Shown here in pieces: positions 18,434 through 44,610 of a stretch of DNA of 45,626 nt. A model generated the notes under the pieces. It saw nothing but the letters and a program-made list of their open reading frames with translations. It was not told where the DNA came from and did not search any database. The stretch's first letter is position 1. Each line of letters starts with the position of its first letter. A program made the position numbers and the translations under genes. The stretch is from a virus. Lineage: Duplodnaviria > Heunggongvirae > Uroviricota > Caudoviricetes. The stretch is taken from IMG/VR virus record IMGVR_UViG_2579779076_000011; one strand, written 5' to 3'.

Positions 18434-18518
18434 CGTAATTGTTCTCGCAGCTAGGGTAGCTAAAAGACACGGCAGGCAAATGTCTACATGTAGGATACAC
18501 TTGCTATTATCAAGAATT

Positions 18519-25659: not shown

Positions 25660-26226
25660 ATGGCAAGTCAGGCTGAGGTCGCAGCACATTTACTGCTATC
25701 AGATCGTCGTCTGCGCGATCTCGCAAAACTTCCGGGAGCACCAGTCCCACAAGGACGTGGTGATTGGGAGCTAGACGCCTGGCGCCATTTCTATATTCAT
25801 TATCTCCGGAGTAATAGACGCGACACAGTTGGTACTGACGAACCGGAAGTGGGGGACAATTCTCCCGAAAAAAATCGCGAGCAGTGGCTGAAAAATGAGG
25901 AACGACAGGAGCGAATCCTGATGGCTCGCGTGAAACGCCGCATTCTTGCTAAACGCTACGCGCCAATTGAATTAATCAGCGTCGCTGTATCTCGCGTCGC
26001 AGTTGAATTACGTACCCGTGTCGAATCGTGGCCACCACGGTTGAAAAAGGTGTGGCCTGAAATGCCGCAGGAGGCGAGCAGTGTTTTACGAGAGGAGCTG
26101 GCGATAGCCCTGAATGAACTGGCAGACATACGAGTCGACTTCAGCGATTACGATGTCAGCGATATCGAACGCGATCTCGACAGGGTTGAATCCCTTGCGC
26201 GTGACGATACCGATGACGGGGGTTGA
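25660..26226 (+). CDS. terminase small subunit (lambda Nu1-like)
   Basis: Position immediately upstream of and overlapping the gpA-like large subunit; N-terminal DNA-binding-like region. Confidence 0.6.
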   Translation: MASQAEVAAHLLLSDRRLRDLAKLPGAPVPQGRGDWELDAWRHFYIHYLRSNRRDTVGTDEPEVGDNSPEKNREQWLKNEERQERILMARVKRRILAKRYAPIELISVAVSRVAVELRTRVESWPPRLKKVWPEMPQEASSVLREELAIALNELADIRVDFSDYDVSDIERDLDRVESLARDDTDDGG

Positions 26227-28078
26227 GTGGGCTGATAAATATTTTTATCTCCCTGAGGGCTCCAGCCACATCGCTGGCCACTGGACGACTCAGCCGGTCC
26301 AGGTAGTGATGCTCAATATGATGACTAACGACGCGATAAAAATCGTGTCTGTTCGCAAATCAGCTCGTCTCGGTTATACAAAAATACTCGTCGCGGCGCT
26401 GCTCTATTTCGCTGAGCACAAAAAACGTAGTGCCGTGGTCTATCAGCCTATCGATGACGAATCGGATGGATTTGTTGCCGACGAGGTTGACCCCGCTATC
26501 GCCGAAATGCCGGTGATTCAGAAAATTTTCCCCGACTGGGATAAAAGCAACGAGCGTAACAATCTCCAGCGTAAAGAAATGAGCGGCGCGATTATTGATT
26601 TTCGCGGCGCGAGTGCACCAGGAAATTTCCGGCGACTAACGAAACAGGTTGTCGAGGGTGACGAAGTTGACGGCTGGCCGCTGGAAGTTGCCAAAAAAGG
26701 CAAAGGCGAGGGCTCGCCCATCGAACTGGCGCTCGTTCGAATTAAAGGGGCAGCGTACCCGAAGGCGATTTTCGGCTCGACGCCAACCGTCACCGGAAAA
26801 AGTCATATTGAAATGCTGGAGGATGCCGCTGACCTGACGTTTCGTTTTTACCTGAAATGTCCGCATTGTGGCGAGGAGCAGGTCCTGGTATTTGGTTTCG
26901 ACGGCATCGAATATGGCCTCAAATGGGATAATAGCCTGCAGACAAATGAGGCGAAATCGTCGTCCGCGTATTACCAGTGCTGCCACTGTCCTGAGCATTT
27001 TTACTATCGCGATCTCGAAAAAATGGAGCTCGCGGGGCGCTGGATAGCAGAGGACTGCACCTGGACGCGGGACGGTATTCGTTTTTTTGATCACGACGGT
27101 GGTGTCGTTCGCGCGCCGAAACACGCGGCGATCGTGATAAACGCCATGTATTCGCTGAATCTCGACGGCTGGGGCGAGATTGTCAGCGAGTGGCTGAAAG
27201 CGAAGGGCGATCCGCTCAAAGAAAAGACGTTTCATAACACGACGCTCGGCGAACTCTGGAGTGACGTAGCCAGCGAGCAGCTGGAGCACGATATTCTGGT
27301 TAATCGCCGGGAAAAATACGCCAGCCAGGTTCCTGACGGTGTTGTTTATCTGACCGGCGGCATCGACTCTCAGACGTCCGGTCGCTACGAGTGTTACGTG
27401 TGGGGCTGGGGAGTGGAGGAGGAGTGCTGGCTGATTGATAAAACAATCGTCCTCGGTCGCTACGACGAGGAGGACACGCTGCAGCGCGTCGACGGAGTGA
27501 TTCGCAAACAATACCGGCGCAGCGACGGGACCACAATCGGCGTCAGTCGCTGGGCGTGGGATACCGGTGGTATAGATGCGCAGGTCGTTTATAACCGCTC
27601 GCTGAAACTCGGTCCGCTGTGGGTCATTCCAATTAAAGGTGCGAGTTCATACGGTCAGCCAGTCGTAAATATGCCGCGTACACGTAACGCGAATAAAGTC
27701 TATTTGTCGTTAATCGGTACTGATACGGCAAAAGATTTGCTCGCAATGCGCCTGCCGCTGGAACCCGATTCTAAATCGGCGACACCAAGTGCGATTCATT
27801 TTCCCAACGACGACGAAATATTCGGCACGACAGAGGCAAAACAGCTCGTCTCTGAAGTTCTGATCCCGAAACTGATTAACGGTCGCGTCGTTTATCGCTG
27901 GGACAACCAGGGCCGGCGAAATGAGGCGCTCGACTGCTGGGTATACGCGCTGGCAGCGCTACGTATCAGTAAAATTCGTTTCCAGCTCAATCTCGAGACG
28001 CTCGCTGAGCAACGGAAAAAATCACAAAACAAACTGTCTCTCGAGGAGATGGCCAGAATGCTCGGAGGGAGCTCATGA
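26153..28078 (+). CDS. terminase large subunit (lambda gpA family)
   Basis: Collinear similarity to lambda gpA from memory: VEWADKYFYLP, PHCGEEQ, NTTLGE, YLTGGIDSQ, WVIPIKGAS, GTDTAKD, RRNEALDCWVYALAALRIS. Start taken at ATG 26153 (ORF track from 26114). Confidence 0.9.
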   Translation: MSAISNAISTGLNPLRVTIPMTGVEWADKYFYLPEGSSHIAGHWTTQPVQVVMLNMMTNDAIKIVSVRKSARLGYTKILVAALLYFAEHKKRSAVVYQPIDDESDGFVADEVDPAIAEMPVIQKIFPDWDKSNERNNLQRKEMSGAIIDFRGASAPGNFRRLTKQVVEGDEVDGWPLEVAKKGKGEGSPIELALVRIKGAAYPKAIFGSTPTVTGKSHIEMLEDAADLTFRFYLKCPHCGEEQVLVFGFDGIEYGLKWDNSLQTNEAKSSSAYYQCCHCPEHFYYRDLEKMELAGRWIAEDCTWTRDGIRFFDHDGGVVRAPKHAAIVINAMYSLNLDGWGEIVSEWLKAKGDPLKEKTFHNTTLGELWSDVASEQLEHDILVNRREKYASQVPDGVVYLTGGIDSQTSGRYECYVWGWGVEEECWLIDKTIVLGRYDEEDTLQRVDGVIRKQYRRSDGTTIGVSRWAWDTGGIDAQVVYNRSLKLGPLWVIPIKGASSYGQPVVNMPRTRNANKVYLSLIGTDTAKDLLAMRLPLEPDSKSATPSAIHFPNDDEIFGTTEAKQLVSEVLIPKLINGRVVYRWDNQGRRNEALDCWVYALAALRISKIRFQLNLETLAEQRKKSQNKLSLEEMARMLGGSS

Positions 28079-28308
28079 TGTCGCGCGAGGTTTTAACAGA
28101 ACGGCTGCTGGAAGCTGAAATTGCCCTGCACAAATTATTAACGGGTAGATCGACTGTATCGCTGTCTCACGGCGATTCAGCGGGAAATAACCGGAGCTAT
28201 CAATACTCACAGGCGAGTATTGAACAGCTCCGAACGTACATTATCGAGCTGAAATCACAGCTCGGTCTGAGTACGGGACGCCGCCGTCCCGTGGGAGTTC
28301 GATTATGA
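28075..28308 (+). CDS. head-tail joining protein (lambda gpW-like)
   Basis: 77 aa; pattern LEAEIALHKLLTG..QLRTYIIELKSQLG..RRRP parallels lambda W; sits between terminase and portal. Confidence 0.8.
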   Translation: MMSREVLTERLLEAEIALHKLLTGRSTVSLSHGDSAGNNRSYQYSQASIEQLRTYIIELKSQLGLSTGRRRPVGVRL

Positions 28309-29876
28309 CTGCTCAGCAGTTGCTCGGGCCTGACGGTAAAACGCCACTACGCCGTTACGCGGGGTATAACGGCGGCGGTCCCGGCTTCGGTGGCCAGCTG
28401 ATTGACTGGAATGCACCACAGCAAAGCGCCGATGCGGCACTGCTGCCTAATTTTTATCGCGGTAACGCGCGAGCAGACGATCTCGTTCGTAATAACGGCG
28501 TCGCGTCGAACGCCGTGCAGCTGCATCAGGATCATATCGTCGGCAATCTGTTTAAGTTGAGTTATCGCCCTAACTGGCGTTACATCGGGATATCTCGCGA
28601 GGACGCCAGGGCGCTGGCGCGTGACGTTGAGGTCGCGTGGACTGAATACGCCGAGGACCCTCACTGCACGATTGATATCGAGCGGAAACGGACGTTCACA
28701 ATGATGATTCGCGAAGGCGTGGCCACTCACGCGTTCAACGGTGAAACCTGCGTACAACCGGTGTGGGAGAGCTGCGCCGGCAGCGTTTTTCGGACGCGAT
28801 TCAAAATGGTCTCACCGAAACGAATTCGAAATCCTGGCTACGCAGCTGACACTCAATTTCGCCGCGCCGGTGTTGATATCGATAAAAACGGGGCCGCGGT
28901 TGGGTACTGGATAGCCGAGGATACCTATCCCCTCGGCGGAGTTGGTAAATGCCGGCGCATACCAGCAAAACTCAGCAGCGGCAGACACGCATTCATTCAC
29001 ATATTCGAGCCGCTCGAGGACGGACAAACCCGCGGAGATAACATTTTTTACAGCGTAATGGAGCGGCTGAAAATGCTCGATACGCTGCAGCAAACACAGC
29101 TGCAGAGCGCCATCGTGAAGGCGATGTACGCCGCCACAATCGAATCAGAGCTCGACAGCCAGCAGGCGTTTGAATATATCGCCGGCGCGGGTACTGATAT
29201 CGACTCGAACCCGCTGAGTTCGTTTATTCAGAGTTACGTGACGTACTACAACGGCGCAAATATCAAGCTCGGTGGTGTGAAAGTTCCCCACCTGCATCCC
29301 GGCGACAAACTCAGTTTACAGACCGCTCAGAATGCTGATGCTGGTTTCAGTTCGCTGGAAAAATCACTCCTGCGTTACGTTGCCGCTGGCGTCGGCGCGT
29401 CATATGAGGAACTGAGTCGGGACTACAGCCAGGTCAGTTACTCCAGCGCGCGGGCCAGCGCAAACGTGAGCTGGCGTTTTTTCATGGGCCGTCGACGTTT
29501 TATCGCCGCACGACAGGCGTCACTGATGTTCTGCTGCTGGTTTGAGGAAGCTCTGGCGCGCGGAGTTATCACCCTGCCACGCTCAGCGGTCCGGTCGTTT
29601 TATGAAGCGCGGAACTCCTGGACGAACGCGCTCTGGATCGGCGCTGGTCGCATGGCGATTGATGGGCTGAAAGAGGTTCAGGAGAGCGCCATGCGCATCA
29701 CGACTGGCCTCAGCACGTATCAGAACGAACTCGCGCTGCAGGGGCAGGACTACGAGGAGGTCATGGAACAACAGGAATACGAAATTCAGCGCCGGCGCGA
29801 AATGGGGCTGAGCGAACCATCCTGGTCAGTATCTCACCCCTCAAATACCAACGATAACGGCTGGGGAGGTAACTGA
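28305..29876 (+). CDS. portal protein (lambda gpB-like)
   Basis: 523 aa gene following gpW-like with 4 nt overlap; lambda B-type organisation. Confidence 0.85.
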   Translation: MTAQQLLGPDGKTPLRRYAGYNGGGPGFGGQLIDWNAPQQSADAALLPNFYRGNARADDLVRNNGVASNAVQLHQDHIVGNLFKLSYRPNWRYIGISREDARALARDVEVAWTEYAEDPHCTIDIERKRTFTMMIREGVATHAFNGETCVQPVWESCAGSVFRTRFKMVSPKRIRNPGYAADTQFRRAGVDIDKNGAAVGYWIAEDTYPLGGVGKCRRIPAKLSSGRHAFIHIFEPLEDGQTRGDNIFYSVMERLKMLDTLQQTQLQSAIVKAMYAATIESELDSQQAFEYIAGAGTDIDSNPLSSFIQSYVTYYNGANIKLGGVKVPHLHPGDKLSLQTAQNADAGFSSLEKSLLRYVAAGVGASYEELSRDYSQVSYSSARASANVSWRFFMGRRRFIAARQASLMFCCWFEEALARGVITLPRSAVRSFYEARNSWTNALWIGAGRMAIDGLKEVQESAMRITTGLSTYQNELALQGQDYEEVMEQQEYEIQRRREMGLSEPSWSVSHPSNTNDNGWGGN

Positions 29877-31186
29877 TGCCGTGGAACAATTTTCCGCACC
29901 TCGCCGCTAGGGCGTTCAATCAACCGCTTTTGCTGGAGCCCGCCTACGCGCGGGTATTTTTTTCTGCGCTGAGCGACCGGTTCGGTACCGGGCGACTGAT
30001 TGATACAGCGTCAGGAGAGGTAATGAACAGCGACGAAATGAACGCGCTCGCGATGGGGTGGGACAGCAGCGAGCGAACACGCCAGAAATCGTATCGCGTG
30101 GAGCGTGGTATAGCCGTTCTGCCGGTTACCGGGACGCTGGTTCATAAATTGGGTTATATCAATCCGGTCAGCGGGATGAGTGGTTACGACGGAATCGCAA
30201 AACGCCTGCAGCAGGCGATTTCTGATCCCGATGTTAAGGGGATCCTGCTGGATATTGATTCCCCTGGCGGTGAGGTCGCCGGCGCGTTTGATACCGCTGA
30301 TTTAATCGCCCGGGCGCGAGAGCAAAAACCGGTGTGGGCGCTGGCCAGCGATACGGCCTGCAGCGCCGCATATTTGCTGGCGTCAGCGTGTTCGCGCCGG
30401 CTGATAACGCAGACCGGCACGGTTGGTTCAATCGGTGTCCTGATGGCTCACCGCTGCGTCGAAAAGGCGCTGGAGATTGCCGGCGTTGACGTGACGCTGA
30501 TTTACGCCGGCGCGCACAAAGTCGACGGGAACCCGTATTCCCAGCTGCCCGACGACGTTCGCGACGAATTCCAGCTGAGTATTAACAGCACACGCGAGCA
30601 GTTCGCGCAAAAAGTCTCGGATTATACCGGGCTGAAAAAATCCAGGGTGCTGGCCACAGAGGCCGCAGTATTTATCGGCGCGGACGCGATTAAATCTGGT
30701 CTCGCTGATCAACTCGTTAATTACGCGGACGCTATCGCAGTGATGGCCGACGCACTGAAACCAAAAACGGAGCGATTTATGCCAGGTACAACAGAAACCA
30801 CGGCGGAGACCACGACCACAGAACAAACCGCGGCTACGACTACGGTCGCGCCGGTTGAGTCCAACGCGGAGCAGATTCGCGCGGACGCCGCATCGAGCGA
30901 ACTGGCACGCGTGATGGCCATCATCAACTGTCCCGAAGCTGTTGGGCGCGAGGCGCAGGCAAAAGCGCTCGCTGCCGTCCCCGGGATGACGGTCGGGCAG
31001 GCGCAGGCTGTCCTCGCGGCAGCACCGCAAACAGCGCAGGCGCGGACAGAAACGGCGCTCGATACACTCATGAGCACTGAATCACCGGAAACTATTCAGG
31101 ATGCCGGCAGCACCACGGCAACAGGAACAACCGCAAACGTCTCGATGCTGGTCGCGGCAGGGCGTTCAATTTTAGGGGATGAATAA
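29876..31186 (+). CDS. head maturation protease / scaffold (lambda gpC-like, S49 peptidase family)
   Basis: S49/ClpP-like motif GILLDIDSPGGEVAGAFD; 436 aa, close to the lambda C size; Ala/Thr-rich C-terminal scaffold-like region. Confidence 0.85.
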   Translation: MPWNNFPHLAARAFNQPLLLEPAYARVFFSALSDRFGTGRLIDTASGEVMNSDEMNALAMGWDSSERTRQKSYRVERGIAVLPVTGTLVHKLGYINPVSGMSGYDGIAKRLQQAISDPDVKGILLDIDSPGGEVAGAFDTADLIARAREQKPVWALASDTACSAAYLLASACSRRLITQTGTVGSIGVLMAHRCVEKALEIAGVDVTLIYAGAHKVDGNPYSQLPDDVRDEFQLSINSTREQFAQKVSDYTGLKKSRVLATEAAVFIGADAIKSGLADQLVNYADAIAVMADALKPKTERFMPGTTETTAETTTTEQTAATTTVAPVESNAEQIRADAASSELARVMAIINCPEAVGREAQAKALAAVPGMTVGQAQAVLAAAPQTAQARTETALDTLMSTESPETIQDAGSTTATGTTANVSMLVAAGRSILGDE

Positions 31187-31515
31187 TGACCACAGAAACG
31201 TATAGCCCGGATGATTTTATTCTGGGACCCGATCTTGTTGTGACGACCGTCGGTCATTTTCAGGGCGGGATCAACGTACCCCGGCTGACACCGATTATGC
31301 TCGACGCTACTGCCGGGACATTTAAAGTCTGGGACGGCTCAATTGGTAAGGCGGTTGGTCTCACAGCCACAGCAGTTAATACAGGCTCCAGTTCTGCAGA
31401 CTGCTCGTACTACAAATCAGGATCGTTTCGTTATACGGCGATTAACTGGGGTACGGTTACTGACGTCGCTAAACGCAAATCAGCGTTTGCTGGTACGCCA
31501 GTCAGCGTTGGCTGA
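31186..31515 (+). CDS. head decoration protein (lambda gpD-like)
   Basis: 109 aa; TPIMLDAT..WDG, YKSGSFRY, KRKSAFAGT parallel lambda D. Confidence 0.85.
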   Translation: MTTETYSPDDFILGPDLVVTTVGHFQGGINVPRLTPIMLDATAGTFKVWDGSIGKAVGLTATAVNTGSSSADCSYYKSGSFRYTAINWGTVTDVAKRKSAFAGTPVSVG

Positions 31516-31539
31516 TAGCAAAAAAAAAACTCAAAACAA

Positions 31540-31561
31540 GCCGCCTCCGGGCGGTTTTTTT
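31540..31561 (+). terminator. intrinsic terminator-like hairpin between D-like and E-like genes
   Basis: GCCGCC-TCCG-GGCGG followed by TTTTTTT. Confidence 0.5.
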
Positions 31562-31576
31562 ATACAGGATATATAA

Positions 31577-32611
31577 ATGAGCGATTCGTTTACTACGTCA
31601 GAACTGATTACCGCAACGCAGCAGGTATTTAAGTTCAATCCGTTGTTTTTAAGATTGTTTTTCCGTGAGACCTACACGTTTACGAGCGAAGAGGTTTTTC
31701 TGGATAAAATCCCGGGCAAAGTCAATATGGCGGTATATTGCGCCCCGATGATCACCGGCAAAGTTGACCGCACTCGCGGCTATTCAACGAACCACTTTAA
31801 ACCGGGTTACACGAAACCGAAACACACGATCAATCCGAATATGAGCATCAAGCGCGCCGCCGGTGAGCAAATTGGCCAGCCAGAAACGCCGGTCGAACGT
31901 CGTGCAAAAATCATCATGCAGAATTTGCTCGACGAGGAGCTCAGCATCAGCCAGCTCGAAGAGTTCCAGGCAGTGCAGGCGGTTCTGTACGGTAAATACA
32001 CCGTTTCCGGCAGCAATATCGAGACCTATGAGATCGACATGAGCCGCAGCGCGACGAATAACGTCACTCAGTCCGGTTCGACCGCCTGGTCGACTCAGGA
32101 CGCGGAAACGTATGACCCGAGCGACGATATTGAATCCTATGCAGACCTCGCCTCCGGTGCGGTTAACGTGATCATCATGGACGGTAAAGCCTGGAAGCAG
32201 CTTAAACGCTTTAAAAAATTCTGGACGGCACTGGATACGCGCCGCGGCTCAAACAGTCAGCTCGAAGTCGCGCTGAAAAACCTGGGCGATGTCGTTAGCT
32301 TTAAGGGCTATTACGGCGACACGGCGCTGTTCGTTTACAAGGGTCAATATATTGACCCGCTAATAGGCACTGAAACGCGTTATATGCCGGATAACACGAT
32401 GATCCTGGGCAACACAAAAAATCGCGGGCTCCGCACCTATGGCGCGATCCAGGACGAGGACGCGCTGAAAGAGGGTATCTGCGAAGCCACGCGCTATCCA
32501 AAAGTCTGGACCACTACCGGTGATCCGGCAGTGACGCAAACAATGACGCAATCCGCGCCAGCAATGGTCCTCACGGACGCCGACGCGTTCGTTGTCGTAA
32601 AAATCGCGTAA
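31577..32611 (+). CDS. major capsid protein (lambda gpE-like)
   Basis: 344 aa; FKFNPLFLRLFFRE, PGYTKPKH, RGLRTYG, TTGDPA parallel lambda E. Confidence 0.9.
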   Translation: MSDSFTTSELITATQQVFKFNPLFLRLFFRETYTFTSEEVFLDKIPGKVNMAVYCAPMITGKVDRTRGYSTNHFKPGYTKPKHTINPNMSIKRAAGEQIGQPETPVERRAKIIMQNLLDEELSISQLEEFQAVQAVLYGKYTVSGSNIETYEIDMSRSATNNVTQSGSTAWSTQDAETYDPSDDIESYADLASGAVNVIIMDGKAWKQLKRFKKFWTALDTRRGSNSQLEVALKNLGDVVSFKGYYGDTALFVYKGQYIDPLIGTETRYMPDNTMILGNTKNRGLRTYGAIQDEDALKEGICEATRYPKVWTTTGDPAVTQTMTQSAPAMVLTDADAFVVVKIA

Positions 32612-32632
32612 GAGCCGAAAGGCTCTTTTTTG
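32611..32632 (+). terminator. intrinsic terminator after major capsid gene
   Basis: AGAGCC-GAAA-GGCTCT followed by TTTTTT, starting at the capsid stop codon. Confidence 0.5.
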
Positions 32633-32645
32633 TTAAGGAATCAAC

Positions 32646-33059
32646 ATGAGCACAAAAACAGAATTGCTGGCGCGCATTGACGATCTGAGCGCTCAGCTTG
32701 GTCGCGAATTACCGCGCAGCGGGACTATTGCGGAACTGGAATCAATCGTCGCCGGCGCTGAGTCAGAGCTCGATATTCTGAACGAACAATCCAGCGACGC
32801 GAGTGATGCCGACACCAATGAGAGCGCATTAGATGAAACTGATGATGACGGTGTCGAACAACAGTCAATCGCCAGTACTACGCCACAATCAGAACTGTCT
32901 CCCGCTACGCGCCGCGTCAAGTTGCGTAACACGCTGGACATTTATCACTACGTGAACGCGCGTCGCGTTCGCGAGATTGTTGCCGCTGGTCGTGAAATCG
33001 TTGTCGATTCACCGGAGGTCGCAGACCTTATTGCAGCCGATCACGTTTACGCTCTATGA
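32646..33059 (+). CDS. DNA packaging / head completion protein (lambda FI-like, tentative)
   Basis: 137 aa acidic protein at the lambda FI position; N-terminus MSTKTELLARIDDLSAQLGREL parallels lambda FI. Confidence 0.5.
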   Translation: MSTKTELLARIDDLSAQLGRELPRSGTIAELESIVAGAESELDILNEQSSDASDADTNESALDETDDDGVEQQSIASTTPQSELSPATRRVKLRNTLDIYHYVNARRVREIVAAGREIVVDSPEVADLIAADHVYAL

Positions 33060-33436
33060 GCTACTACGACGACCTCCGGGCCGGCGACGAGGAGACGATT
33101 CGTGAGTGGGGACGGCCAGTCAAATTACGCGGTAAAGCTGACCCCATTATCGCTATTTTCAACGAGCCTTACGCGCGCGTTGACGTTCCTCACGCTGGTT
33201 TTATTACCGGCACAGTAACGAGCCTGACGGCGCTCTCTGACGACGTTGCTGGCGTTGTTGCGCGTGACGTCGTCCAGGTCCCAAAGCAGCGCAGTATCGC
33301 TGCTGACGGCTCTGTTACCTGGTCTGGCTGGACCGATTACGTGGTTAAAGAGCCTCAACCGGATGGCATCGGTCTCACGAATATTTTTTTAGAGCCTCAC
33401 ACGTCCAGCGAAAACAGCGAGTATTCAAAATACTAA
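33056..33436 (+). CDS. head-tail connector protein (FII-position, tentative)
   Basis: 126 aa at the FII position; ATGA overlap with upstream gene; sequence not obviously lambda FII. Confidence 0.4.
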   Translation: MSYYDDLRAGDEETIREWGRPVKLRGKADPIIAIFNEPYARVDVPHAGFITGTVTSLTALSDDVAGVVARDVVQVPKQRSIAADGSVTWSGWTDYVVKEPQPDGIGLTNIFLEPHTSSENSEYSKY

Positions 33437-33457
33437 GTGGGACCGCGGTCCCACTTA
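33434..33457. repeat. perfect 24-bp palindrome at the head/tail module junction
   Basis: TAAGTGGGACCGCGGTCCCACTTA begins at the stop codon of the FII-position gene and is followed by a G-rich SD and a GTG start. Confidence 0.5.
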
Positions 33458-33467
33458 AGGGGGGACC

Positions 33468-34148
33468 GTGGCCGATTTACGTAGTAACGCGCAGATGTTC
33501 GATATCGATGTTTCGGCGCTGGAGCAACTTAGAGTCGAAATTAGCGCGACGCAACATCAGATGCTGATGGCATACAACAGGGCGCTGAACCGAACTGCAA
33601 AGCATATGCACCGGGTCTCGGTGGGAATGATCATTGAATCGCTGGCGGTTAAAGGGCGTAAGGCCGCAGAAAAACGCGTAAAACCGTTCGTCAAAATCCG
33701 GAACATATCAAAAGAAACTGCAGGAGACCTGAGCAGCGCCAAGCTCTGGTACGGTCTGAATGATTTCCGGGTATCTGAGCTAAAGGGGCGATTACAAAAT
33801 CCACGGAGGCAAAAACAGCCTCGCGATCCTGAGACCGGTCAATTTTTGAAAACAAAAAAAGGCGCTCGAGGGGCAACTTTTACACCCAAAAGTGCAGGGC
33901 TGGCGATGCTGAGCTGGCCCGATTCATTCGTAGCGAAACGCTACGGTGCGAAAAGTGTCTGGATTCGACTGGCTCGCGGAGGAATCGAAGAGGCTCGCGT
34001 ACCGGTGCACGAAGCGCTGGAGGATGCTATCGATGATTATATTTTTGAAAATATTGGCACCGTGTTCATGGGTTTTTTTGAACAGGATTTGCGTGGTCGC
34101 GTGAAAGGTAATGTCCACGTAGACCCTAAAACAGGTAAACGATTATGA
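33468..34148 (+). CDS. hypothetical structural protein (possible neck/tail completion)
   Basis: 226 aa, GTG start after GGGGGGA; position between head and baseplate genes. Confidence 0.35.
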   Translation: MADLRSNAQMFDIDVSALEQLRVEISATQHQMLMAYNRALNRTAKHMHRVSVGMIIESLAVKGRKAAEKRVKPFVKIRNISKETAGDLSSAKLWYGLNDFRVSELKGRLQNPRRQKQPRDPETGQFLKTKKGARGATFTPKSAGLAMLSWPDSFVAKRYGAKSVWIRLARGGIEEARVPVHEALEDAIDDYIFENIGTVFMGFFEQDLRGRVKGNVHVDPKTGKRL

Positions 34149-35567: not shown

Positions 35568-35569
35568 AT

Positions 35570-36828: not shown

Positions 36829-36830
36829 CC

Positions 36831-37457
36831 ATGACAAGTCAAAGCGTATTACCTCCGAACGCAATAACCCCCGAGAGAGCGCTGGAATCTGTTTTATCTC
36901 ACGTTGGCGATCTGCCTGGCGATATTCGAATTATCAAAAACCCAGACACATGTCCCGCCGATTTATTACCCTGGCTGGCATGGGAATATGCTGTTACGTA
37001 CTGGAACCCCGACTGGAGTGAGCAGCAAAAACGCGAAATTATTAAAGCAGCTGCGTGGCAGAACAAGCACCGCGGAACGCGTGGAGCTGTTGAACGAGCG
37101 TTATTAACAGTTGGATTTGAGAGCAAAATGAGAGAGTGGTTTGAAGCCGCGCCCAGGGACGACCCGTATACATTCGCAATTAAAATATATCTGCTAAAAA
37201 GTATGGGGTTAGATTTAGAGCTATTGAATACATTTATTGCACAAATATTTGATGCAAAAAATTGTCGTTCATTATTAAAGGAAATAAATTTCGAAACGGG
37301 TGTCGATGGTGAGTTTTTTATAGCTGGTACATCTTACGCGAAAATAGGCGTAAATATACCGGCAGATGGTGATGGTGGCGTGAAATTAAATGGCGGATTA
37401 TATATATCAGGCTCGCCAATTGTTAGTTTAAACGTGGAGATAGACCCAAATGGCTGA
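36831..37457 (+). CDS. baseplate/tail protein (P2 gpI-like)
   Basis: 208 aa; N-terminal LPPNAITPERALESVLS..LLPWLAWEY typical of P2 I-type proteins. Confidence 0.75.
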   Translation: MTSQSVLPPNAITPERALESVLSHVGDLPGDIRIIKNPDTCPADLLPWLAWEYAVTYWNPDWSEQQKREIIKAAAWQNKHRGTRGAVERALLTVGFESKMREWFEAAPRDDPYTFAIKIYLLKSMGLDLELLNTFIAQIFDAKNCRSLLKEINFETGVDGEFFIAGTSYAKIGVNIPADGDGGVKLNGGLYISGSPIVSLNVEIDPNG

Positions 37458-38598
37458 AAATAAAATTTACGCTGTGTTAACTGATCGTGGCGCGCAGTTA
37501 GAAGCTGCGGCGCTGGCGTCAGGAGTGCCGGTAGTGCTAAATAAATTCGTTATTGGTGACGCGAACGGAAACGACGACGTAACGCCAGACCCGGCCCGAA
37601 CGGCATTAATTCACGAGACGTATCGCGGAGATATTAAATCGTCAGAAAATAGCGGTAATCAAGTCATTTTTACACTATACGTACCACCGGAAACCGGCGG
37701 CTATACTATCCGTGAGGTGGGAATATTAACCGACAAAGGTGAACTGTACTCTGTAGCGCGTTCGCCGGATATTTTAAAACCTACGGACAGTAACGGCGCA
37801 CTGATTTCAATCACGTATAAATACACCCTCGCGGTGTCCAGCACATCTACTGTTAACGTAGTTATTGATAACAGTAGCGGAATGAACCAGGCAGATGCTG
37901 ATAAGCGCTATTTGCAGATAAGCAAAAATTTATCTGAAATTAAAAATAAGGGCGAATCCGCTCAACGAGCAGGGCGGGAGAATCTCGGTATTGATTTAGA
38001 CGATTATTACGATAAAACTGAGATTGATAGCAAATTTACTGATATTGATGAAGATATTAATAATATAAATAAAACAAAACCTGTTCTTACAGTAAATAAT
38101 ATACAGCCTGATGCTACTGGGAATGTAAATACAGGTTCCGGATTTGCAAAACCAAACGGCGATGGGGCGTTTAATCTGGTTATGTTATACGGCGGTGACC
38201 ACGTCAGTGTTACTCCTGCGATGACAATCGTAACAGGTTATGATGTATCCCCGTACGCGATAAATCCAACCAATGTAAACGCCGATGTGGAAACTTATTT
38301 GTGCGGTGCGTGGATGACGTTAGCGGCAACGAGTGGAAATGCGTTAGTGATGGCGCAGCGAATTCCCATTGGGAATATATCAAAAATGTTAAATATACGA
38401 GATCCGTATTACCCGAATAAACACGGAACCGTTAACTCATATGATCACAATTATATCTGCGTTAAATGTAATATTGAAGGAATAGATAATGACATCATAT
38501 TTACGTCAAATCTGAAAGACGTTGAGGAATATGGTGTGCAGGTTTTCCAGAACGCCAAAAATGGTATTTACGGCACCGTTATAGACGAAGGTCATTGA
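37450..38598 (+). CDS. tail fibre protein (P2 gpH-like, N-terminal tail-collar domain) with AT-rich C-terminal variable region
   Basis: N-terminus MAENKIYAVLTDRGAQLEAAALASG..VLNKFVIGDANGNDDVTPDP matches the conserved fibre N-terminal domain; the C-terminal half is low-GC and Asn/Ile-rich. Confidence 0.8.
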   Translation: MAENKIYAVLTDRGAQLEAAALASGVPVVLNKFVIGDANGNDDVTPDPARTALIHETYRGDIKSSENSGNQVIFTLYVPPETGGYTIREVGILTDKGELYSVARSPDILKPTDSNGALISITYKYTLAVSSTSTVNVVIDNSSGMNQADADKRYLQISKNLSEIKNKGESAQRAGRENLGIDLDDYYDKTEIDSKFTDIDEDINNINKTKPVLTVNNIQPDATGNVNTGSGFAKPNGDGAFNLVMLYGGDHVSVTPAMTIVTGYDVSPYAINPTNVNADVETYLCGAWMTLAATSGNALVMAQRIPIGNISKMLNIRDPYYPNKHGTVNSYDHNYICVKCNIEGIDNDIIFTSNLKDVEEYGVQVFQNAKNGIYGTVIDEGH

Positions 38599-38609
38599 GA
38601 GTAAAATAA

Positions 38610-40115
38610 ATGAGCACTAATTTTTTGCACGGCCCACGCACGCTAGAATACGACGACGGCACAAAAGAGATCAGCGCGGTAGATATTTCAGTTATCGGGA
38701 TTGTTGGTACTGCACCGGATTCCGCGCAATCAACCAGTTCCGAGTTAATAACAGGGAGTGCTATTTTAAAAAACCGCCTTAAATTCACGGCGACGGGACA
38801 GGGGGTGAGGGGCAATTCATGGAGCGTAGAGATTCTCGAAACCGATCCGGACGGCTGCACGGCACTGTGGAGTGATATGCCCGACGGGAGTCGACGTTTA
38901 TCAATATCAGTCGCACCGGCATCCGGCTCGCACGGATACACCCCAGCAGAAATCGTGCAGGCAGTCACAATAGCAAACCCGCCTCCGGACCAATTATTTT
39001 TAACAATTACGGCAGTAGATGTCGGGGAGGACGCGGGAAATGTGACTGCCTCACCGTTGCAATATTTAAGTGGCGGCAGTGATGAGGCGTTCCCAATTAA
39101 TACCCCCGTACTTGTTGCCGGGAGTCCAAAAAAAGCCGCTTTACTGGGTGAGCGCGGCACGTTGCCGAAAGATATTGCCGATATTTTCAATCAGGACAAC
39201 GCCTTGCTTGTTGTTGTACGAGTAAAAGATGACAAAGACACAACAAAACAACAGCAAAATATTATCGACGGTGTCAAACAGCTGGAAAAATCGAAACAGT
39301 TAACCGAAGTCACACCGCGTATTATTATTGCACCAGATTTTAGCGCAATTGATGCGATAGCCGCTCAGCTTGAGGTGGTCGCAAATAAACTCCGGGGGGT
39401 GTGTTATATAGACTCTCCGCGCGCAGCTACCCCTGCAGACGTTGTGAATCGCCGGCAAAAACTCGGCGGACGTGCTGAGTTGTTGCGTCCCCGTGTTTAT
39501 TCAACTAGCGACGTAGGCGGACAATCAAGACCATATTCAGCCATTGCTGCTGGTTTACGAGCCAGAATTGATAATGAAAAAGGGTTTTGGTGGAGTAAGT
39601 CGAATCAAAATATTTATGGAATAACAGGGCTTGAGCAGGTTGATGATTTCATTATTGGCGAGACAAACTGTACGGCGAACCTGCTGAACGCCAGCCAGGT
39701 CAGCACCATTATTCGCTACGATGGATTCCGGCACTGGGGTAACTATCTGTGCAGTCTGGATCCACAATGGTCGTTTGAATGCGTTCGTCGGACAGCTGAC
39801 GTAATTGAAGATTCTATAGCCCGGGCAATGATGACAGATTTTATTGATCGCCCGATAGACCTGCATCTCGGAACAGACGTTGTCGAGTCGATAAACGCAT
39901 ATCTGCACAAATTAGAGGAGCAGGGTGCGATTAACGGAGGGCGAGCGTGGTTAGACGGTGAGCTGAATACAAAAGAAAGTCTGGCCGCTGGTAATCTTTA
40001 TATTAATGTTGATTTTGGTCCGAAATCTCCAGCACAAACAATTACGTTAATGTACCGCGTTAATAATGACTATACAGTTGAAGCGCTGGCCTCCCTTTTT
40101 AAAGAAACAGCCTGA
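38610..40115 (+). CDS. contractile tail sheath protein (P2 FI-like)
   Basis: 501 aa; LRARIDNEKGFWWSKSN, IRYDGFRHWGN, AGNLYINVDFGP parallel the P2 sheath. Confidence 0.9.
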   Translation: MSTNFLHGPRTLEYDDGTKEISAVDISVIGIVGTAPDSAQSTSSELITGSAILKNRLKFTATGQGVRGNSWSVEILETDPDGCTALWSDMPDGSRRLSISVAPASGSHGYTPAEIVQAVTIANPPPDQLFLTITAVDVGEDAGNVTASPLQYLSGGSDEAFPINTPVLVAGSPKKAALLGERGTLPKDIADIFNQDNALLVVVRVKDDKDTTKQQQNIIDGVKQLEKSKQLTEVTPRIIIAPDFSAIDAIAAQLEVVANKLRGVCYIDSPRAATPADVVNRRQKLGGRAELLRPRVYSTSDVGGQSRPYSAIAAGLRARIDNEKGFWWSKSNQNIYGITGLEQVDDFIIGETNCTANLLNASQVSTIIRYDGFRHWGNYLCSLDPQWSFECVRRTADVIEDSIARAMMTDFIDRPIDLHLGTDVVESINAYLHKLEEQGAINGGRAWLDGELNTKESLAAGNLYINVDFGPKSPAQTITLMYRVNNDYTVEALASLFKETA

Positions 40116-40132
40116 TAATTCGGAGATTAAAT

Positions 40133-40645
40133 ATGTCAGACAGCAACGCTTACCGCGCGTTTGCGCTATTCGTGCAGGGCGAACGGGTTTTAAATTGTAC
40201 TGAATATACTCCTGTCGATATGAAAATAATCGAGGACGAGTTTAAAACAGGCGCGATGGATACAGCCATCACATTAGATGGCGGTATGGAGAAAATGTCA
40301 GCCAGTTTTAAAGTTTCGGGTTCTGATTCTGGTGTTATGAGCTATTTCGGGTTAATACCGGGAGTCAAGACGCGGTTTGAAATTCGTAGTGCGTACACAG
40401 ACTCCTATGGAATAAATTTTGAGCGTATTGATACCTACGAGGGACTTATTACGGCAATCACTGATGACGCTCAGGGGACTGATTCAAAATCGTCAGTGGG
40501 GCAATCAGTAACGATTGCGCCGAGCTATTATAAACGAGTTCAAAATGGACGAATTATTTACGAAATTCATCCTGCAAAAATGAAACGCGTTATCAACGGT
40601 GTTGATGTTCTTGCGGGCGTCGCTCGAATCCTTCATGTATATTAA
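40133..40645 (+). CDS. tail tube protein (P2 FII-like)
   Basis: 170 aa immediately after sheath; size and position typical of a tube protein. Confidence 0.7.
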   Translation: MSDSNAYRAFALFVQGERVLNCTEYTPVDMKIIEDEFKTGAMDTAITLDGGMEKMSASFKVSGSDSGVMSYFGLIPGVKTRFEIRSAYTDSYGINFERIDTYEGLITAITDDAQGTDSKSSVGQSVTIAPSYYKRVQNGRIIYEIHPAKMKRVINGVDVLAGVARILHVY

Positions 40646-40657
40646 AAGGTAAGTAAA

Positions 40658-40939
40658 ATGGAATCCTTATTAGACAGTATGACTATTACGCTCTCTCGAC
40701 CGTTTATTATTAAGGGCGAGAGCTGCGATACAATTACTATTCGCGAACCAAAATTACGCGACCGCATTATGTTCAGTAACGATAAAAGCGGTCTTGAAGA
40801 GCGGACAGCGACAATGCTGGCGCGCCTGGCAAATCTGGAGAGAGAGGATTTATATGCGCTCCCCGCGTGCGATTACGATCAACTGGAGGCCGCGTTTAAC
40901 GAACTGGTAAAGCACCCGAAAGACCGACATCAGATATAG
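40658..40939 (+). CDS. tail assembly chaperone (P2 gpE-like); probable frameshift extension to 41070
   Basis: 93 aa with the ..IREPKLRD...DLYALPACDYDQLEAAF pattern; a -1 frame is open from 40900 to 41070 across the stop and into the tape-measure start. Confidence 0.65.
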   Translation: MESLLDSMTITLSRPFIIKGESCDTITIREPKLRDRIMFSNDKSGLEERTATMLARLANLEREDLYALPACDYDQLEAAFNELVKHPKDRHQI

Positions 40940-41047
40940 TTATTCTGATTCCGTTTATTGCGAAAAAACTTGCCATCCCGCCCGATACGCAAATGGACCT
41001 GCCGTATCGGGTTTTTAATTTCTATGTAAACGAGGTCATGAAAACCG

Positions 41048-42688
41048 ATGGCTATTTCTCAAAACTTTAAAACGCAGGTTGTATTTGGGGGAAGAATAGA
41101 CCCGTCGTTTCGGCGCGGTACAACAGAACTCAACGATGCAATTCGGCAGACGTCGTCTACTGTCGGAAAATTAACGAAAAGCCAGGATAAATTAAAAGAC
41201 AAAATCGCAGCAATGAAACTGGCGGGTAAAGACGTTTCTGATTTATCTGCTCAGTATCAAAAGCTGGACCGTCGGATAAAAGCGACAACACAGGACCAGG
41301 AAGCTCTGAATACTCAGCTCGCCAAAAAACAGCGGCTGGAGAAGTGGACGGGGCGCGCAAAAGGTGCTGCAAAATGGGGAGGGCGAGCCGCCGCAGGTGC
41401 GGTGAGGGCCACGGGACGGGGTATCAAATGGGGGACGCTGGGGGCCGTGGGTCTGCTCGGCGGCGCGGCTGCTGGCGCGTTGGCAATGAATGCAGAGACG
41501 TCAGAAAAACTCGGTCTGGCGAAGTCCTACGGTGTTGGCATCGAAAAATACGCTGCGTGGGAAAATATTGGTAAAGCTGCAGGGCTGAATGGCGAAAACG
41601 TAGGAGATCTGTCGGAGGAGTTGACTAATAAAATCGGGGAGGTTGGAAACGAAAAAAACCTGAACCCCATGTTGTTTCAAATTGGCCTGACAAAAAAACG
41701 GATGGCTAAATGGGATCGAGAAAAACAGTTCAATGAAGTTATGCGGCGTATCTCTGAAATGAAGGATGATCAACAGGCGGCGAGTCTGGCTGATCAGCTC
41801 ATGGGGGGGGAAGCTAATAAAATAATGACTTATATGCGGGCGACTGGTAAAAGCTGGGAGCAGACTCTGTCGGACGCTCAAAAATCAAACCTGCTAACGA
41901 AAGAAGGGGCTGAGGGTGCAGCGCGCGCGCACGTATCCGTCACGAATCTGTGGGGGGCAATCACATCGGGGCTGGCAGATACTCTCGGGAAAATCGGAGG
42001 GGAACTCGCGCCGACGTTTGACGCTATGCGAGACGGGCTGGCATCCTGGTTTAAAGAGAATCAAGGGGGGGTTGTTGATAGTATTAAAGAATGGGTTAAG
42101 CCAGAAAATATGAAAAAAATGTGGGAGGGGATAGTCAGTTTTGGCGAGGCGTGCGTTAAATTCGGAAAAATAATTTGGGCAGTCGTAAAAAAACTGGAGT
42201 GGTTAATACCGGACGAGAAAACAGACGAGGAGCAGCGCGTATATAACGAAGAATATAATAAGGCGTATCAGGAATTCATGGATGGCGGAGGAAAATATTC
42301 ACCAAACCCAGGAATGGCGGCGGATAATGTTGCAAAAGCAAAAGCCGCCGAAGCCGTGGATAATATGCGACACCCTGAACGTCTTGCTCGTGCAAAATCA
42401 CAGGCTGAATCACTGCTCTCGTTTGCTAACCCGTTTACTGGATTAATAAATAAAGGCTCAACGCCTGAATCACAAAACTCAGCAACGTTGAATATTGACG
42501 CGCTGAGACAAGCAGTCGCAACTCCAGCGCCAGAGCAAAACAATAAAATTGAAATCAATATTATCGGAGCGGCAGATCCACAATCAACACAGCAGGCTGC
42601 TGCATCGGGTGTGCTCGACGGGCTGAGACAAGTTGCGAGTTCGTACAACCGTGGTGCGATGTTTGATAAACCAGCGGCGGCGGGGTGA
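41048..42688 (+). CDS. tail tape measure protein
   Basis: 546 aa; coiled N-terminal region, Gly/Ala-rich hydrophobic stretch; position after the chaperone. Confidence 0.8.
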   Translation: MAISQNFKTQVVFGGRIDPSFRRGTTELNDAIRQTSSTVGKLTKSQDKLKDKIAAMKLAGKDVSDLSAQYQKLDRRIKATTQDQEALNTQLAKKQRLEKWTGRAKGAAKWGGRAAAGAVRATGRGIKWGTLGAVGLLGGAAAGALAMNAETSEKLGLAKSYGVGIEKYAAWENIGKAAGLNGENVGDLSEELTNKIGEVGNEKNLNPMLFQIGLTKKRMAKWDREKQFNEVMRRISEMKDDQQAASLADQLMGGEANKIMTYMRATGKSWEQTLSDAQKSNLLTKEGAEGAARAHVSVTNLWGAITSGLADTLGKIGGELAPTFDAMRDGLASWFKENQGGVVDSIKEWVKPENMKKMWEGIVSFGEACVKFGKIIWAVVKKLEWLIPDEKTDEEQRVYNEEYNKAYQEFMDGGGKYSPNPGMAADNVAKAKAAEAVDNMRHPERLARAKSQAESLLSFANPFTGLINKGSTPESQNSATLNIDALRQAVATPAPEQNNKIEINIIGAADPQSTQQAAASGVLDGLRQVASSYNRGAMFDKPAAAG

Positions 42689-43113
42689 CAATGAGTGATG
42701 CGATAAACGGTGCTGAGGATATCATGCTAGGCGTGGGTGATTTCATTTTTGCTATATCAACAGTAGCGTACAACAAACTGCAACGTAGTGACGCCTGGCG
42801 CTGGGCTCAGCAAACACGGTTCGGAAAAAACGACGCATTGCAGATAACCGGACGACCGAACCCCACAATCACGATCGATGGGAAAATAAATGCCTTATTC
42901 CTTGATGGGTGCGGCATTGGCTTGTTAACAGATTTGCGGGCGCTGGGGAACTCGGGAGAACCCCAGCAACTGGTGCTGGGGACCGGGGAGGTGAAGGGGT
43001 ACTGGGTTATCAGGGAGTTAACAGAAACGCAAAACAGTTTTCTGAAAGGAGGGACCCCAAAATCGCAGGACTTTTCACTCACGCTCGAATATTACGGAGC
43101 TTCGCTGGATTGA
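42685..43113 (+). CDS. tail protein (P2 gpU-like)
   Basis: 142 aa; LGVGDFIFAISTVAYNKLQRSDAWRWAQQTRFG parallels the P2 U N-terminus. Confidence 0.7.
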   Translation: MTMSDAINGAEDIMLGVGDFIFAISTVAYNKLQRSDAWRWAQQTRFGKNDALQITGRPNPTITIDGKINALFLDGCGIGLLTDLRALGNSGEPQQLVLGTGEVKGYWVIRELTETQNSFLKGGTPKSQDFSLTLEYYGASLD

Positions 43114-43352
43114 ACTTCTTTCGGTTTTTTATCACCGAGAGCGGACCACAGCAACAGAATGATCCACATCAAAAATATCCATCCGAATAATATATTCAGA
43201 ATAACGACCATTGCGCAGCTTTTATGTCCCCTTATTAGAGCAATTACTAACGGTATTACGTATAAAATGATGGATATTAACGGGTTCGCCATTAACCATA
43301 TATACAGAGCGATAACCCACGCAAATAATTCCATTTGAGGCCTCATAATCAT
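43092..43352 (-). CDS. superinfection-immunity-like small membrane protein (Imm_superinfect-type), reverse-strand moron in tail cluster
   Basis: 86 aa; two hydrophobic helices with ..IPLVIALIRGHKS...ILNILFGWIFLMW.. matching the superinfection immunity family; opposite strand to all flanking tail genes. Confidence 0.6.
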   Translation of the reverse strand: MIMRPQMELFAWVIALYIWLMANPLISIILYVIPLVIALIRGHKSCAMVVILNILFGWIFLMWIILLLWSALGDKKPKEVQSSEAP

Positions 43353-43563
43353 GATTACATATACGACGCGGGACGGTGACCGTCTCGATCAAATCTGCTT
43401 TGCGGTCTACGGGAGAGCGTCAAAAACGACAGAGACTGTTTTATATCAGGTTTCGAATTACGGCGTAACTGATATGTGTGCCGTGTTTCGTGCTGGAGAA
43501 AAAATTGTTTTACCCGATATCGAACCAGAACCGGTTAAAAAAGAAACGCAATTATGGGATTGA
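43351..43563 (+). CDS. tail protein X (P2 gpX-like)
   Basis: 70 aa; RDGDRLDQICFAVYGR....TVLYQ...VLPDIEP..V..ETQLWD parallels P2 X. Confidence 0.8.
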   Translation: MITYTTRDGDRLDQICFAVYGRASKTTETVLYQVSNYGVTDMCAVFRAGEKIVLPDIEPEPVKKETQLWD

Positions 43564-43566
43564 TGA

Positions 43567-44610
43567 ATGAGTGATTACGTAAATACTGGCGTGGAGGCGT
43601 GGAAACCTAATTTTTATATATCTGCTGATAATAAAAACATCACGGATAAAATAAGAAAAGGTTTGATCAATATCACGCTGACAGATTACGGCGGTTCCAG
43701 TAAACAGACAGACGAACTCCGCGTAGCAATAGTTTCTGAAACTCTGAAAATTCCGGCCCGTGGAGTGAAAATTAGCATTGGGCTCGGTTTCGGTAATCAG
43801 ATAATTGATAAAGGCATATACATCGTTGACGGTGCTAGCAGTGGCGGTGAACCCCGGGTAGTTGATTTCACAGCAAAAGCGGCTCCGATGAACGCGGCAA
43901 AGGGCTCTCCAACAGTTCAGAGCAAAAAGACGCGCTCATGGAGCGACGTCACCGTCAGCGATATCGTTGCGACAATAGCGAGCGATAACGGGCTAAAACC
44001 TCGCGTATCAAAGCGGTTTGCAGACAACATTATCACGCAGCTCGATCAAGTCGGTGAGTCAGATATGCACCTGATGTCGAGACTAGCAACACGATTCGAT
44101 GCGGTGAGCAAACCCGCAGGAGGGTACTGGATATTCCTGCCGCGTGGCGCGGGCGAATCTGTTAACGGAGCACCGCTTCTGCACTACACGCTCACGCGTC
44201 GTGATAACTCCAGCTGGGGTTATTCGAGAAATGGACAAAACGGCGATAGTGGCGGAGGTGGCGAAAATTCGGAGCCGACATATCTGATCAAATACCACGA
44301 TACGGCAACAGGGCAGATCAAGGAGCTGCGCACAGGCAGTGGTGGTGATCCTGTCATTGAATGGCCGGCAGTTGAGCCGTCGCTCGACGCAGCGAAAGAG
44401 GCCGCGCCGGGGCTAAAAGGAGGTGCGGCTAAAAAAGAGTTTTCCATGACGTACACAACGCCAGCAACGCTCGATTTAGTATCGCTGACTGCAGAATGCA
44501 AAGTCACAACACAAGGGTTCGGGACAGAGGAGGACCGAGACTGGACAATCAATACGTTGACGCTGACGCTGGCTGAAAACGGATTCTCTGCGCGACTGTC
44601 GCTGGAGTAA
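43567..44610 (+). CDS. tail protein (P2 gpD-like)
   Basis: 347 aa at the canonical D position after X; called by position and size. Confidence 0.65.
   Translation: MSDYVNTGVEAWKPNFYISADNKNITDKIRKGLINITLTDYGGSSKQTDELRVAIVSETLKIPARGVKISIGLGFGNQIIDKGIYIVDGASSGGEPRVVDFTAKAAPMNAAKGSPTVQSKKTRSWSDVTVSDIVATIASDNGLKPRVSKRFADNIITQLDQVGESDMHLMSRLATRFDAVSKPAGGYWIFLPRGAGESVNGAPLLHYTLTRRDNSSWGYSRNGQNGDSGGGGENSEPTYLIKYHDTATGQIKELRTGSGGDPVIEWPAVEPSLDAAKEAAPGLKGGAAKKEFSMTYTTPATLDLVSLTAECKVTTQGFGTEEDRDWTINTLTLTLAENGFSARLSLE

Follow-up and report, generated by a model that had tools for sequence, protein, structure and literature searches.

Two viruses with a P2-type tail on a foreign head have been described. 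In the HAP1-like viruses VP882 and phiHAP-1, P2-type V and F tail operons are joined to a non-P2 head, and the VP882-type prophage lives as a linear plasmid (Lavigne et al. 2009, PMC2771037). A second relevant genome, that of the Aeromonas phage vB_AhyM_UALMA_PCAh2 (PCAh2; PQ314494), has been deposited, and our literature search found no paper on it. At the joint between head and tail, a canonical gene order of head completion protein, tail completion protein (TCP) and tail terminator has been described for lambda and T5, and the TCP had not been located in any phage structure until very recently (PMC11784142). In the literature, we found neither a description of a lambda-like head with a P2-like or contractile tail nor a paper explicitly describing the Escherichia coli lineage treated here or its neck. 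Here we analyze the virion genes at positions 25660–44610 of the IMG/VR virus record IMGVR_UViG_2579779076_000011 (Caudoviricetes), a stretch of 45,626 nucleotides that we refer to as the window, and compare them with lambda, P2 and the phages mentioned above.

Our analysis indicates that this region is very probably a single co-oriented virion operon of a temperate E. coli prophage, which combines a lambda-family head with a P2-superfamily contractile tail. From position 25660 to the window end at 45626, the genes form an unbroken series on the + strand, overlapping or abutting one another. The intergene gaps range from −20 to +61 nt throughout the head-neck-baseplate stretch, and the open reading frames (ORFs) across the head/tail boundary share overlaps of 4 to 20 nt. 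Each of the 24 virion ORFs in the window is uninterrupted and reaches full length relative to its family. The genes 5′ of the terminase genes code for Cro/CI-type regulators, a replicative helicase, a lambda-type Q antiterminator, two holins and an endolysin; the Q antiterminator and the lysis genes at this place are further likenesses to lambda. The module is 99.8–99.9% identical to the corresponding parts of the E. coli SE11 and E24377A chromosomes. In SE11, the prophage has a size of ~47.7 kb and carries a tyrosine integrase at one end, adjoining a tRNA-Ser gene and mtfA, while at the end opposite to the integrase, ~350 bp beyond the last window gene, the 3′ end of the tRNA-Ser gene is repeated over 77 bp. 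Thus, one att repeat pair encloses head and tail together. No protelomerase was found in the annotation of the SE11 element, which is chromosomal. A match to the module of any extent was present in 588 of the 5426 complete E. coli genomes, and in 442 of those 588 at least 80% of the module was covered.

Pfam hits were counted at curated cut-offs, and PHROG profiles, BLASTP and tblastn were used beside Pfam. The first part of the region (25660–33436) contains a collinear lambda-type head set, the proteins of which are 33–63% identical to those of lambda where BLAST detects similarity:

25660–26226, + strand: small terminase subunit in the Nu1 position (phrog_57, E = 1e-38, full length)
26114–28078, + strand: large terminase of the gpA family (Pfam GpA_ATPase, 3e-47; GpA_nuclease, 4e-63)
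28075–28308, + strand: gpW head-tail adaptor (Pfam gpW, 2e-15; 33% identical to lambda W)
28305–29876, + strand: portal of the lambda gpB family (Pfam Phage_portal_2, 4e-90; 63% identical to lambda B)
29876–31186, + strand: S49 prohead protease/scaffold, gpC with a Nu3-like C-terminal part (Pfam Peptidase_S49, 3e-38)
31186–31515, + strand: head decoration protein of the gpD family (Pfam HDPD, 6.7e-8, above the cut-off; 40% identical to lambda D)
31577–32611, + strand: major capsid protein of the gpE family (Pfam Phage_cap_E, 8e-59; 57% identical to lambda E)
32646–33059, + strand: FI DNA-packaging chaperone (Pfam Packaging_FI, 2.6e-9; phrog_92, 6e-30)
33056–33436, + strand: FII, head closure and head-tail joining (Pfam Phage_attach, 4.7e-10; phrog_82 (Hc1), 8e-24)

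The large terminase is 43% identical to lambda A across 645 aa, with an alignment that starts at residue 14, and its true start is probably a few codons downstream of 26114. The gpC-type protease shows 55% identity to lambda C, and the alignment extends into the Nu3 region. Towards the end of the set, FI, FII and the following gene Z are recognizable by profile only: just the N-terminal 41 aa of FI align with lambda FI (46% identity), and FII shares phrog_82 with lambda FII, with a weak BLASTP match between the two (E = 0.011). The small terminase ORF has no Pfam match; it is 45% identical to its PCAh2 counterpart and has only a local match to lambda Nu1 (51 aa, 22% identity, E = 2e-4) in the C-terminal part, while the N-terminal part of Nu1 is not recognizably similar. 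In SE11, RefSeq annotates only the final 102 codons of this gene, and the 188-codon ORF matches phrog_57 end to end. A search for the lambda cosN sequence (GGGCGGCGACCT, with at most two mismatches) revealed nothing convincing near the terminase genes. None of the window head proteins had a tblastn match in P2, where the head genes are Q, P, O, N, M and L.

The tail module (34662–44610) corresponds to a P2-superfamily contractile tail with the genes V, W, J, I, H, sheath, tube, E, T, U, X and D. Its proteins V, W, J, I, H (N-terminus), FI, U, X and D are 25–41% identical to those of P2, and the tube and E are linked to P2 by profile:

34662–35567, + strand: baseplate spike of the gpV family (Pfam Phage_base_V, 2e-12; 36% identical to P2 V over the N-terminal 118 aa)
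35570–35911, + strand: baseplate wedge, gpW/gp25 (Pfam GPW_gp25; 37% identical to P2 W)
35908–36828, + strand: baseplate gpJ (Pfam Baseplate_J; 41% identical to P2 J)
36831–37457, + strand: baseplate gpI (Pfam Tail_P2_I, 3e-38; 34% identical to P2 I)
37450–38598, + strand: tail fibre with a P2 gpH-type N-terminus (Pfam Phage_tail_fib, 7e-32; 34% identical to the P2 H N-terminus)
38610–40115, + strand: tail sheath, 501 aa (Pfam Phage_sheath_1 and 1C; 33–35% identical to P2 FI over residues 159–496)
40133–40645, + strand: tail tube (Pfam Phage_tube, 8e-22; 30% match to P2 FII, local only)
40658–40939, + strand: tail assembly chaperone E (Pfam Phage_TAC_7, 2e-16)
40658–41070, + strand: E′, a probable −1 frameshift extension of E (−1 frame open from 40900 to 41068)
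41048–42688, + strand: tape measure "T", by its position between E/E′ and U only (phrog_3654, a family of unknown function)
42685–43113, + strand: gpU-family tail protein (Pfam Phage_P2_GpU, 1e-32; 35% identical to P2 U)
43351–43563, + strand: gpX tail protein (Pfam Phage_tail_X, 2e-15; 40% identical to P2 X)
43567–44610, + strand: gpD-family baseplate hub/late control protein (25% identical to P2 D, E = 9e-25; phrog_52, 6e-93)

With Pfam Phage_GPD, the last of these proteins reached 23.7 bits, which is under the cut-off of 30.1. The sheath is about 105 aa longer than P2 FI. E has no BLAST similarity to P2 E; we infer the frameshift product E′ from the −1 frame, which runs over the T start as in the P2 E/E′ layout, and a search of gene E revealed no canonical slippery heptamer (XXXYYYZ). 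The T protein (546 aa) has no similarity by BLAST to P2 T, an unrelated tape measure of 815 aa, and is 32% identical to its counterpart in Photobacterium. The tail genes are contiguous here, with X between U and D, whereas in P2 X belongs to the head/lysis operon and accessory genes split the tail; the order found in the window is that of PCAh2 and VP882. There is no gpG-like fibre chaperone gene after the H-like fibre gene and no ogr-like gene after D, where the next gene is a fibre gene. The lambda tail genes V, G, T, H, M, L, K, I and J have no homologues in this region: when every window tail protein was compared with lambda bases 1–24000 by tblastn, only the N-terminus of the second fibre matched (Stf).

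The original prediction had read the head genes as lambda-type, in the order of lambda from Nu1 to FI, and the tail genes as P2-type. Both assignments are borne out by the Pfam matches and identities listed above. In the head, the reservation concerns Nu1, where a small terminase gene is indeed present and its resemblance to the lambda protein is limited to the local match; in the tail, it concerns T, which is assigned by position.

As for the relatives of the tail, gpJ is 45–47% identical to its homologues in many myoviruses. We considered whether the closest gpJ relatives share the lambda head and rejected this for the one inspected, Klebsiella phage ST16-OXA48phi5.4, which is an ordinary member of the Peduoviridae with a P2 head. 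Within the lineage, the sheaths of the window and of the E. whittamii copy are only 16–60% identical over residues ~25–250 and 80–100% identical over residues 250–500. Local divergence between these two copies is also seen in the C-terminal half of the fibre, in the FI linker and in gpD. This looks like patchwise replacement of surface-exposed parts within the lineage.

Between the head and tail modules there are two ORFs without a Pfam match, which had been left as unassigned genes in the original prediction:

33468–34148, + strand: tail completion protein (TCP/Ne1) of the lambda gpZ family (226 aa; phrog_27, 7e-42, full length)
34145–34681, + strand: tail terminator of the collar type, which would cap tube and sheath (178 aa; phrog_1072)

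The first of these ORFs (Z-like) matches phrog_27, which is labelled "tail completion or Neck1" and also includes lambda gpZ (3e-69). The threshold of Pfam Minor_tail_Z is passed by distant Z-like relatives and by the PCAh2 and VP882 counterparts. The gene is situated between the head-closure and tail-terminator genes, so that the order FII, Z-like, terminator is the canonical neck order. The assignment is also consistent with the statement that TCPs long escaped location in structures (PMC11784142). A contig scan with the Z-like family, based on a single peptide pattern, gave four loci only, and the taxonomic survey is correspondingly thin.

For the second ORF, phrog_1072 also holds VP882 gp14 and a PCAh2 ORF (31392–31919 of that locus). 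The family profile matches the R2-pyocin collar PA0615 (6u5f) over the full length with E = 4e-4, and this protein is the best match of the ORF both by profile and by fold, with an identity of about 19–20%. In Foldseek, the structure model matched 6u5f with E = 1e-6, the Mu terminator 9khy with 2e-5 and lambda gpU (3fz2/8iyd) with about 1e-3; the Pa193/E217 neck entries and the diffocin collar were also found. The lambda gpU would thus be replaced here by a collar-type terminator of the same fold. Of the P2 pair gpR (PF06891) and gpS (PF05069), there is no Pfam or BLAST match in the window; these proteins (phrog_65 and phrog_26) are replaced by the phrog_1072 and phrog_27 proteins in the opposite order. 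Judging from families, fold and position, we conclude that both ORFs encode the expected neck proteins, a putative gpZ-family tail completion protein and a predicted tail terminator. The lambda-family head, with its gpE capsid, gpD decoration protein, S49 protease/scaffold and gpA terminase, would accordingly join the P2-superfamily contractile tail via a four-protein neck encoded exactly at the changeover; its head side would consist of the adaptor gpW and the head-closure protein FII, its tail side of the gpZ-family and pyocin-collar-type proteins.

The closest architecture is that of PCAh2, which has the same 24-gene order from the small terminase to gpD (A-W-portal-S49-D-E-FI-Hc1-Z-like-phrog_1072-V-W-J-I-fibre-sheath-tube-E-T-U-X-D). 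Its head proteins are ~55% identical to those of the window, ranging over 45–57% for small terminase, A, portal, C and capsid, with lower values for W (39%) and D (31%), and its Z-like protein is 24% identical. In contrast, its tail proteins are only 21–26% identical, lower than those of P2, and belong to a different sub-lineage. PCAh2 has telomere resolvase and partition genes, whereas the window prophage integrates via a tyrosine integrase. Hapunavirus (Vibrio phage VP882) shares the neck trio (Hc1, Minor_tail_Z protein, phrog_1072 protein) with the window, and X again lies between U and D. Its tail is 24–34% identical and its terminase and portal ~20% identical, and none of the capsid, protease and decoration proteins had a match in it. 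The protelomerase and the linear-plasmid state of Hapunavirus are not shared by the window element, which is chromosomal.

The pyocin affinity of the terminator raises the question of whether the region could consist of two adjacent elements, a head-only lambdoid remnant and an R-type tailocin cluster. In the pyocin cluster, PA0615 is presumably the gene immediately 5′ of the gpV homologue, and the R-pyocin order, which starts with the terminator, continues with V, W, J, I and H and ends at D, X being placed between U and D, would be much like that of the window. However, pyocins have no head or neck genes, whereas here the tail genes are immediately preceded, within one operon, by a full head and terminase set. 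Head and tail are not separated by any integrase, regulator or lysis cassette, the genes overlap at the boundary, the head-closure and tail completion proteins lie between the two blocks, and the single att pair surrounds all of them. Furthermore, the deposited phage genomes of PCAh2 and VP882 have the same contiguous layout. We therefore regard two separate elements as very improbable and a single virion operon as the far better description.

The place of the changeover can be specified. The GC content is 54.6% from Nu1 to FII, 49.4% in the neck pair and 47.3% from V to D. In a Photobacterium alginatilyticum locus, the Z-like protein (37% identical), terminator (31%), J (38%), sheath (46%) and tube (32%) are shared with the window, while the terminase, portal and protease are only 25–26% identical and E, D, FI and FII were not detectable. 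Enterobacteriaceae bacterium G50 holds both halves (portal 78%, capsid 66%, J 53%, sheath 47% identical). Finally, similarity to lambda weakens across FI and FII and is absent at Z by BLAST. Since the GC break, the blocks shared with Photobacterium and G50 and the fading of lambda similarity agree, we place the module boundary in the FII–Z spacer (33437–33467, 31 nt). This refines the original prediction, which had located the switch around 33.4–34.7 kb, at the two genes now assigned to the neck. The comparisons also suggest that the block of Z, terminator, baseplate, sheath and tube moves as one unit.

The FII protein of G50 is only 33% identical, far below the capsid genes, as expected for a protein that is required to fit the tail terminator. 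At ~11795 of the G50 locus, there is a gpU-like match between the terminator-like gene and gpV and not after the tape measure, indicating that the tail gene order is not fixed within the lineage.

The boundary spacer carries a further feature:

33434–33457, no strand: perfect 24-bp palindrome (TAAGTGGGACCG followed by CGGTCCCACTTA) in the 31-nt FII–Z spacer

The palindrome starts with the FII stop codon and stops 10 nt before the GTG of the Z-like gene. Such palindromes are expected by chance ~0.003 times in 45.6 kb (45626 × 4^-12), and the window contains only one other perfect palindrome of at least 16 bp. A recent recombination between a lambda-like and a P2-like phage, with the palindrome marking the crossover, would agree with the coincidence of composition break, module boundary and palindrome-bearing spacer, and with the structure of the site itself, which has TAAG on both flanks and a 5′ arm resembling the downstream ribosome-binding region. 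The relatives contradict such an event. In the E. whittamii copy, where the neck proteins are 88–99% identical, the site reads TAAGAGGGAGCCGTG and lacks the palindrome. Because this copy has the same junction without it, the palindrome is part of a 22-nt insert in the window lineage. In the loci of the two distant relatives checked, there were no palindromes of at least 16 bp. In the phage collection, neither lambda nor P2 nor any further phage lineage matches the module at the DNA level, DNA matches being confined to the lineage's own four phage records, and the protein identities do not exceed 63% (lambda) and 41% (P2). In addition, head and tail have co-diverged in G50, and PCAh2 has the same architecture. 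A recent recombinant is thus largely refuted already, and we give it hardly any weight.

We conclude that the palindrome belongs to a later, lineage-specific insertion of 22 nt and is not a junction scar. The 24-bp palindrome of the original prediction is thus confirmed as perfect and non-random, and its part as a marker of the junction is not; the lambda × P2 recombination junction that whole-genome comparison was expected to locate is not locatable at this level of divergence. Because head and tail have diverged together after joining, the seam is old, and the lambda-head/P2-tail pairing has been stably inherited. The combination of modules is real but old, already recorded and ordinary, and is no fresh hybrid.

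The insert is present in 446 E. coli genomes, of which only 7 are at least 99% identical to the window version, while 438 of the 446 copies have a variant with two mismatches to the window over 70 nt. One such variant copy was read (705R4); it differs from the window at the palindrome centre (CCTCGG) and in the G-run and keeps a 10-bp stem with a 4-nt loop. The minimum-free-energy fold of the window RNA has −34.2 kcal/mol (z = −4.6), and the two arms are not paired with each other in it. Instead, the 3′ arm pairs with GGGACCGUGG, including the Shine-Dalgarno run and the start codon of the Z-like gene. When the palindrome hairpin was enforced, the window version gave −23.9 kcal/mol. The palindrome is no canonical terminator on the + strand, where the terminator scan did not flag it and no T-run follows; the scan flagged it on the − strand only, where a T-rich run follows. 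According to the predicted folds, the insert RNA may form its own hairpin or, in the more stable alternative, mask the ribosome-binding site and GTG of the Z-like gene, and a masked start would make Z translation dependent on ribosomes finishing FII (translational coupling). It is conceivable, if rather doubtful, that the insert acts in this way as an RNA switch at the head-tail seam, in which the 3′ arm has two alternative partners, the 5′ arm and the stretch with the ribosome-binding site and GTG. If so, FII-terminating ribosomes would gate Z-like synthesis and set the ratio of head closure to tail completion protein in a two-module particle.

Several observations weigh against the interpretation given here or parts of it. 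Between the Z-like protein and lambda gpZ, there is no direct BLAST or hhalign match, and the link is transitive via profiles; the terminator model is of moderate confidence only (predicted local distance difference test score, pLDDT, of 65). The GC contrast is modest and differs from gene to gene. The two folds of the common insert variant are nearly isoenergetic (−26.3 versus −25.0 kcal/mol), and the role of the hairpin comes from computation only. Particles have never been seen for this prophage. The GenBank "phage" records that are ~91% identical to the module (n = 4) are PHASTER predictions from clinical genomes with no isolated particles behind them, and the transmission electron microscopy in the study behind these records is not linked to this element. 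In SE11, the CI-like HTH repressor gene, divergent from cro (21350–21758 of the SE11 locus), is annotated as a frameshifted pseudogene, and in the ~91% lineage gpD is split. Because of the frameshifted repressor and the split gpD, some prophage copies may be defective.

These defects are also what would be expected if the element were cryptic and non-inducible, a prophage with an intact module sequence that no longer yields infectious particles. The missing fibre chaperone after the H-like fibre and the short second fibre, with 336 aa the last gene product before attR, point in the same direction. On the other hand, the virion ORFs are all open and full length, the att repeats are intact and the integrase is present, and near-identical copies occur in many unrelated strains. 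A cryptic element is therefore improbable in our view, and we prefer to regard the region as the virion operon of a temperate prophage.

Two of the observations just mentioned have further aspects. The state of the SE11 repressor leaves lysogeny maintenance in question. In the ~91% lineage (ON470624), gpD is present as two ORFs (1724–2768) and the record continues directly into the host gene yecA (1–666); this lineage sits at another chromosomal site, and its right end may be truncated.

The last gene of the operon encodes a second fibre:

44616–45626, + strand: second fibre, 336 aa, with a lambda Stf-type N-terminus (PF08400; 36% identical to lambda orf-401)

It follows gpD and there is no chaperone gene 3′ of it. 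This Stf-type N-terminus at the far end is another likeness to lambda. A lambda-type side-fibre N-terminus next to a P2-type baseplate is an oddity; if the second fibre really docks on this baseplate, the particle would carry two fibre systems of different ancestry.

Within the tail operon, an antisense ORF (43092–43352, − strand) with a match to Pfam Imm_superinfect (E = 5.8e-11) is embedded as a small accessory gene between U and X, which accounts for the 237-nt gap between these two genes. Within the head part of the operon, canonical intrinsic-terminator-like hairpins with T-runs occur on the + strand after gpD (31538–31557) and after gpE (32610–32627), where they plausibly set a high relative abundance of the decoration and capsid transcript segments under Q antitermination; terminator-like sites overall are not above shuffled sequences (31 versus 23.6 ± 5.1). 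Upstream of the virion genes, an accessory island (11160–19298) lies between the replication genes and Q, and its 15–19 kb part has a GC content of 0.32–0.40. It contains a full-length PD-T4-3 anti-phage defence protein (14544–15350, − strand; PADLOC E = 5.7e-138; Pfam LEM-3 GIY-YIG), an HNH_2 protein (13228–14463), an LprI-domain protein (11160–12083) and three ORFs without a family (15676–17055, 17378–18040 and 18519–19298).

To summarize, the region involves no new kind of biology and will not surprise a phage biologist. For this prophage, present in about a tenth of sequenced E. coli, the annotation can be corrected, since two "hypothetical proteins" become a putative tail completion protein and a predicted tail terminator and the RefSeq gene model of the small terminase is too short. 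The particle would also be a convenient system for studying the virion location and role of gpZ-type TCPs, which is still an open question (PMC11784142). Above all, the operon provides a clean worked example of modular phage evolution, in which a small, fast-evolving neck can join a lambda-family head to a P2-family contractile tail and the seam can be placed within a 31-nt spacer.

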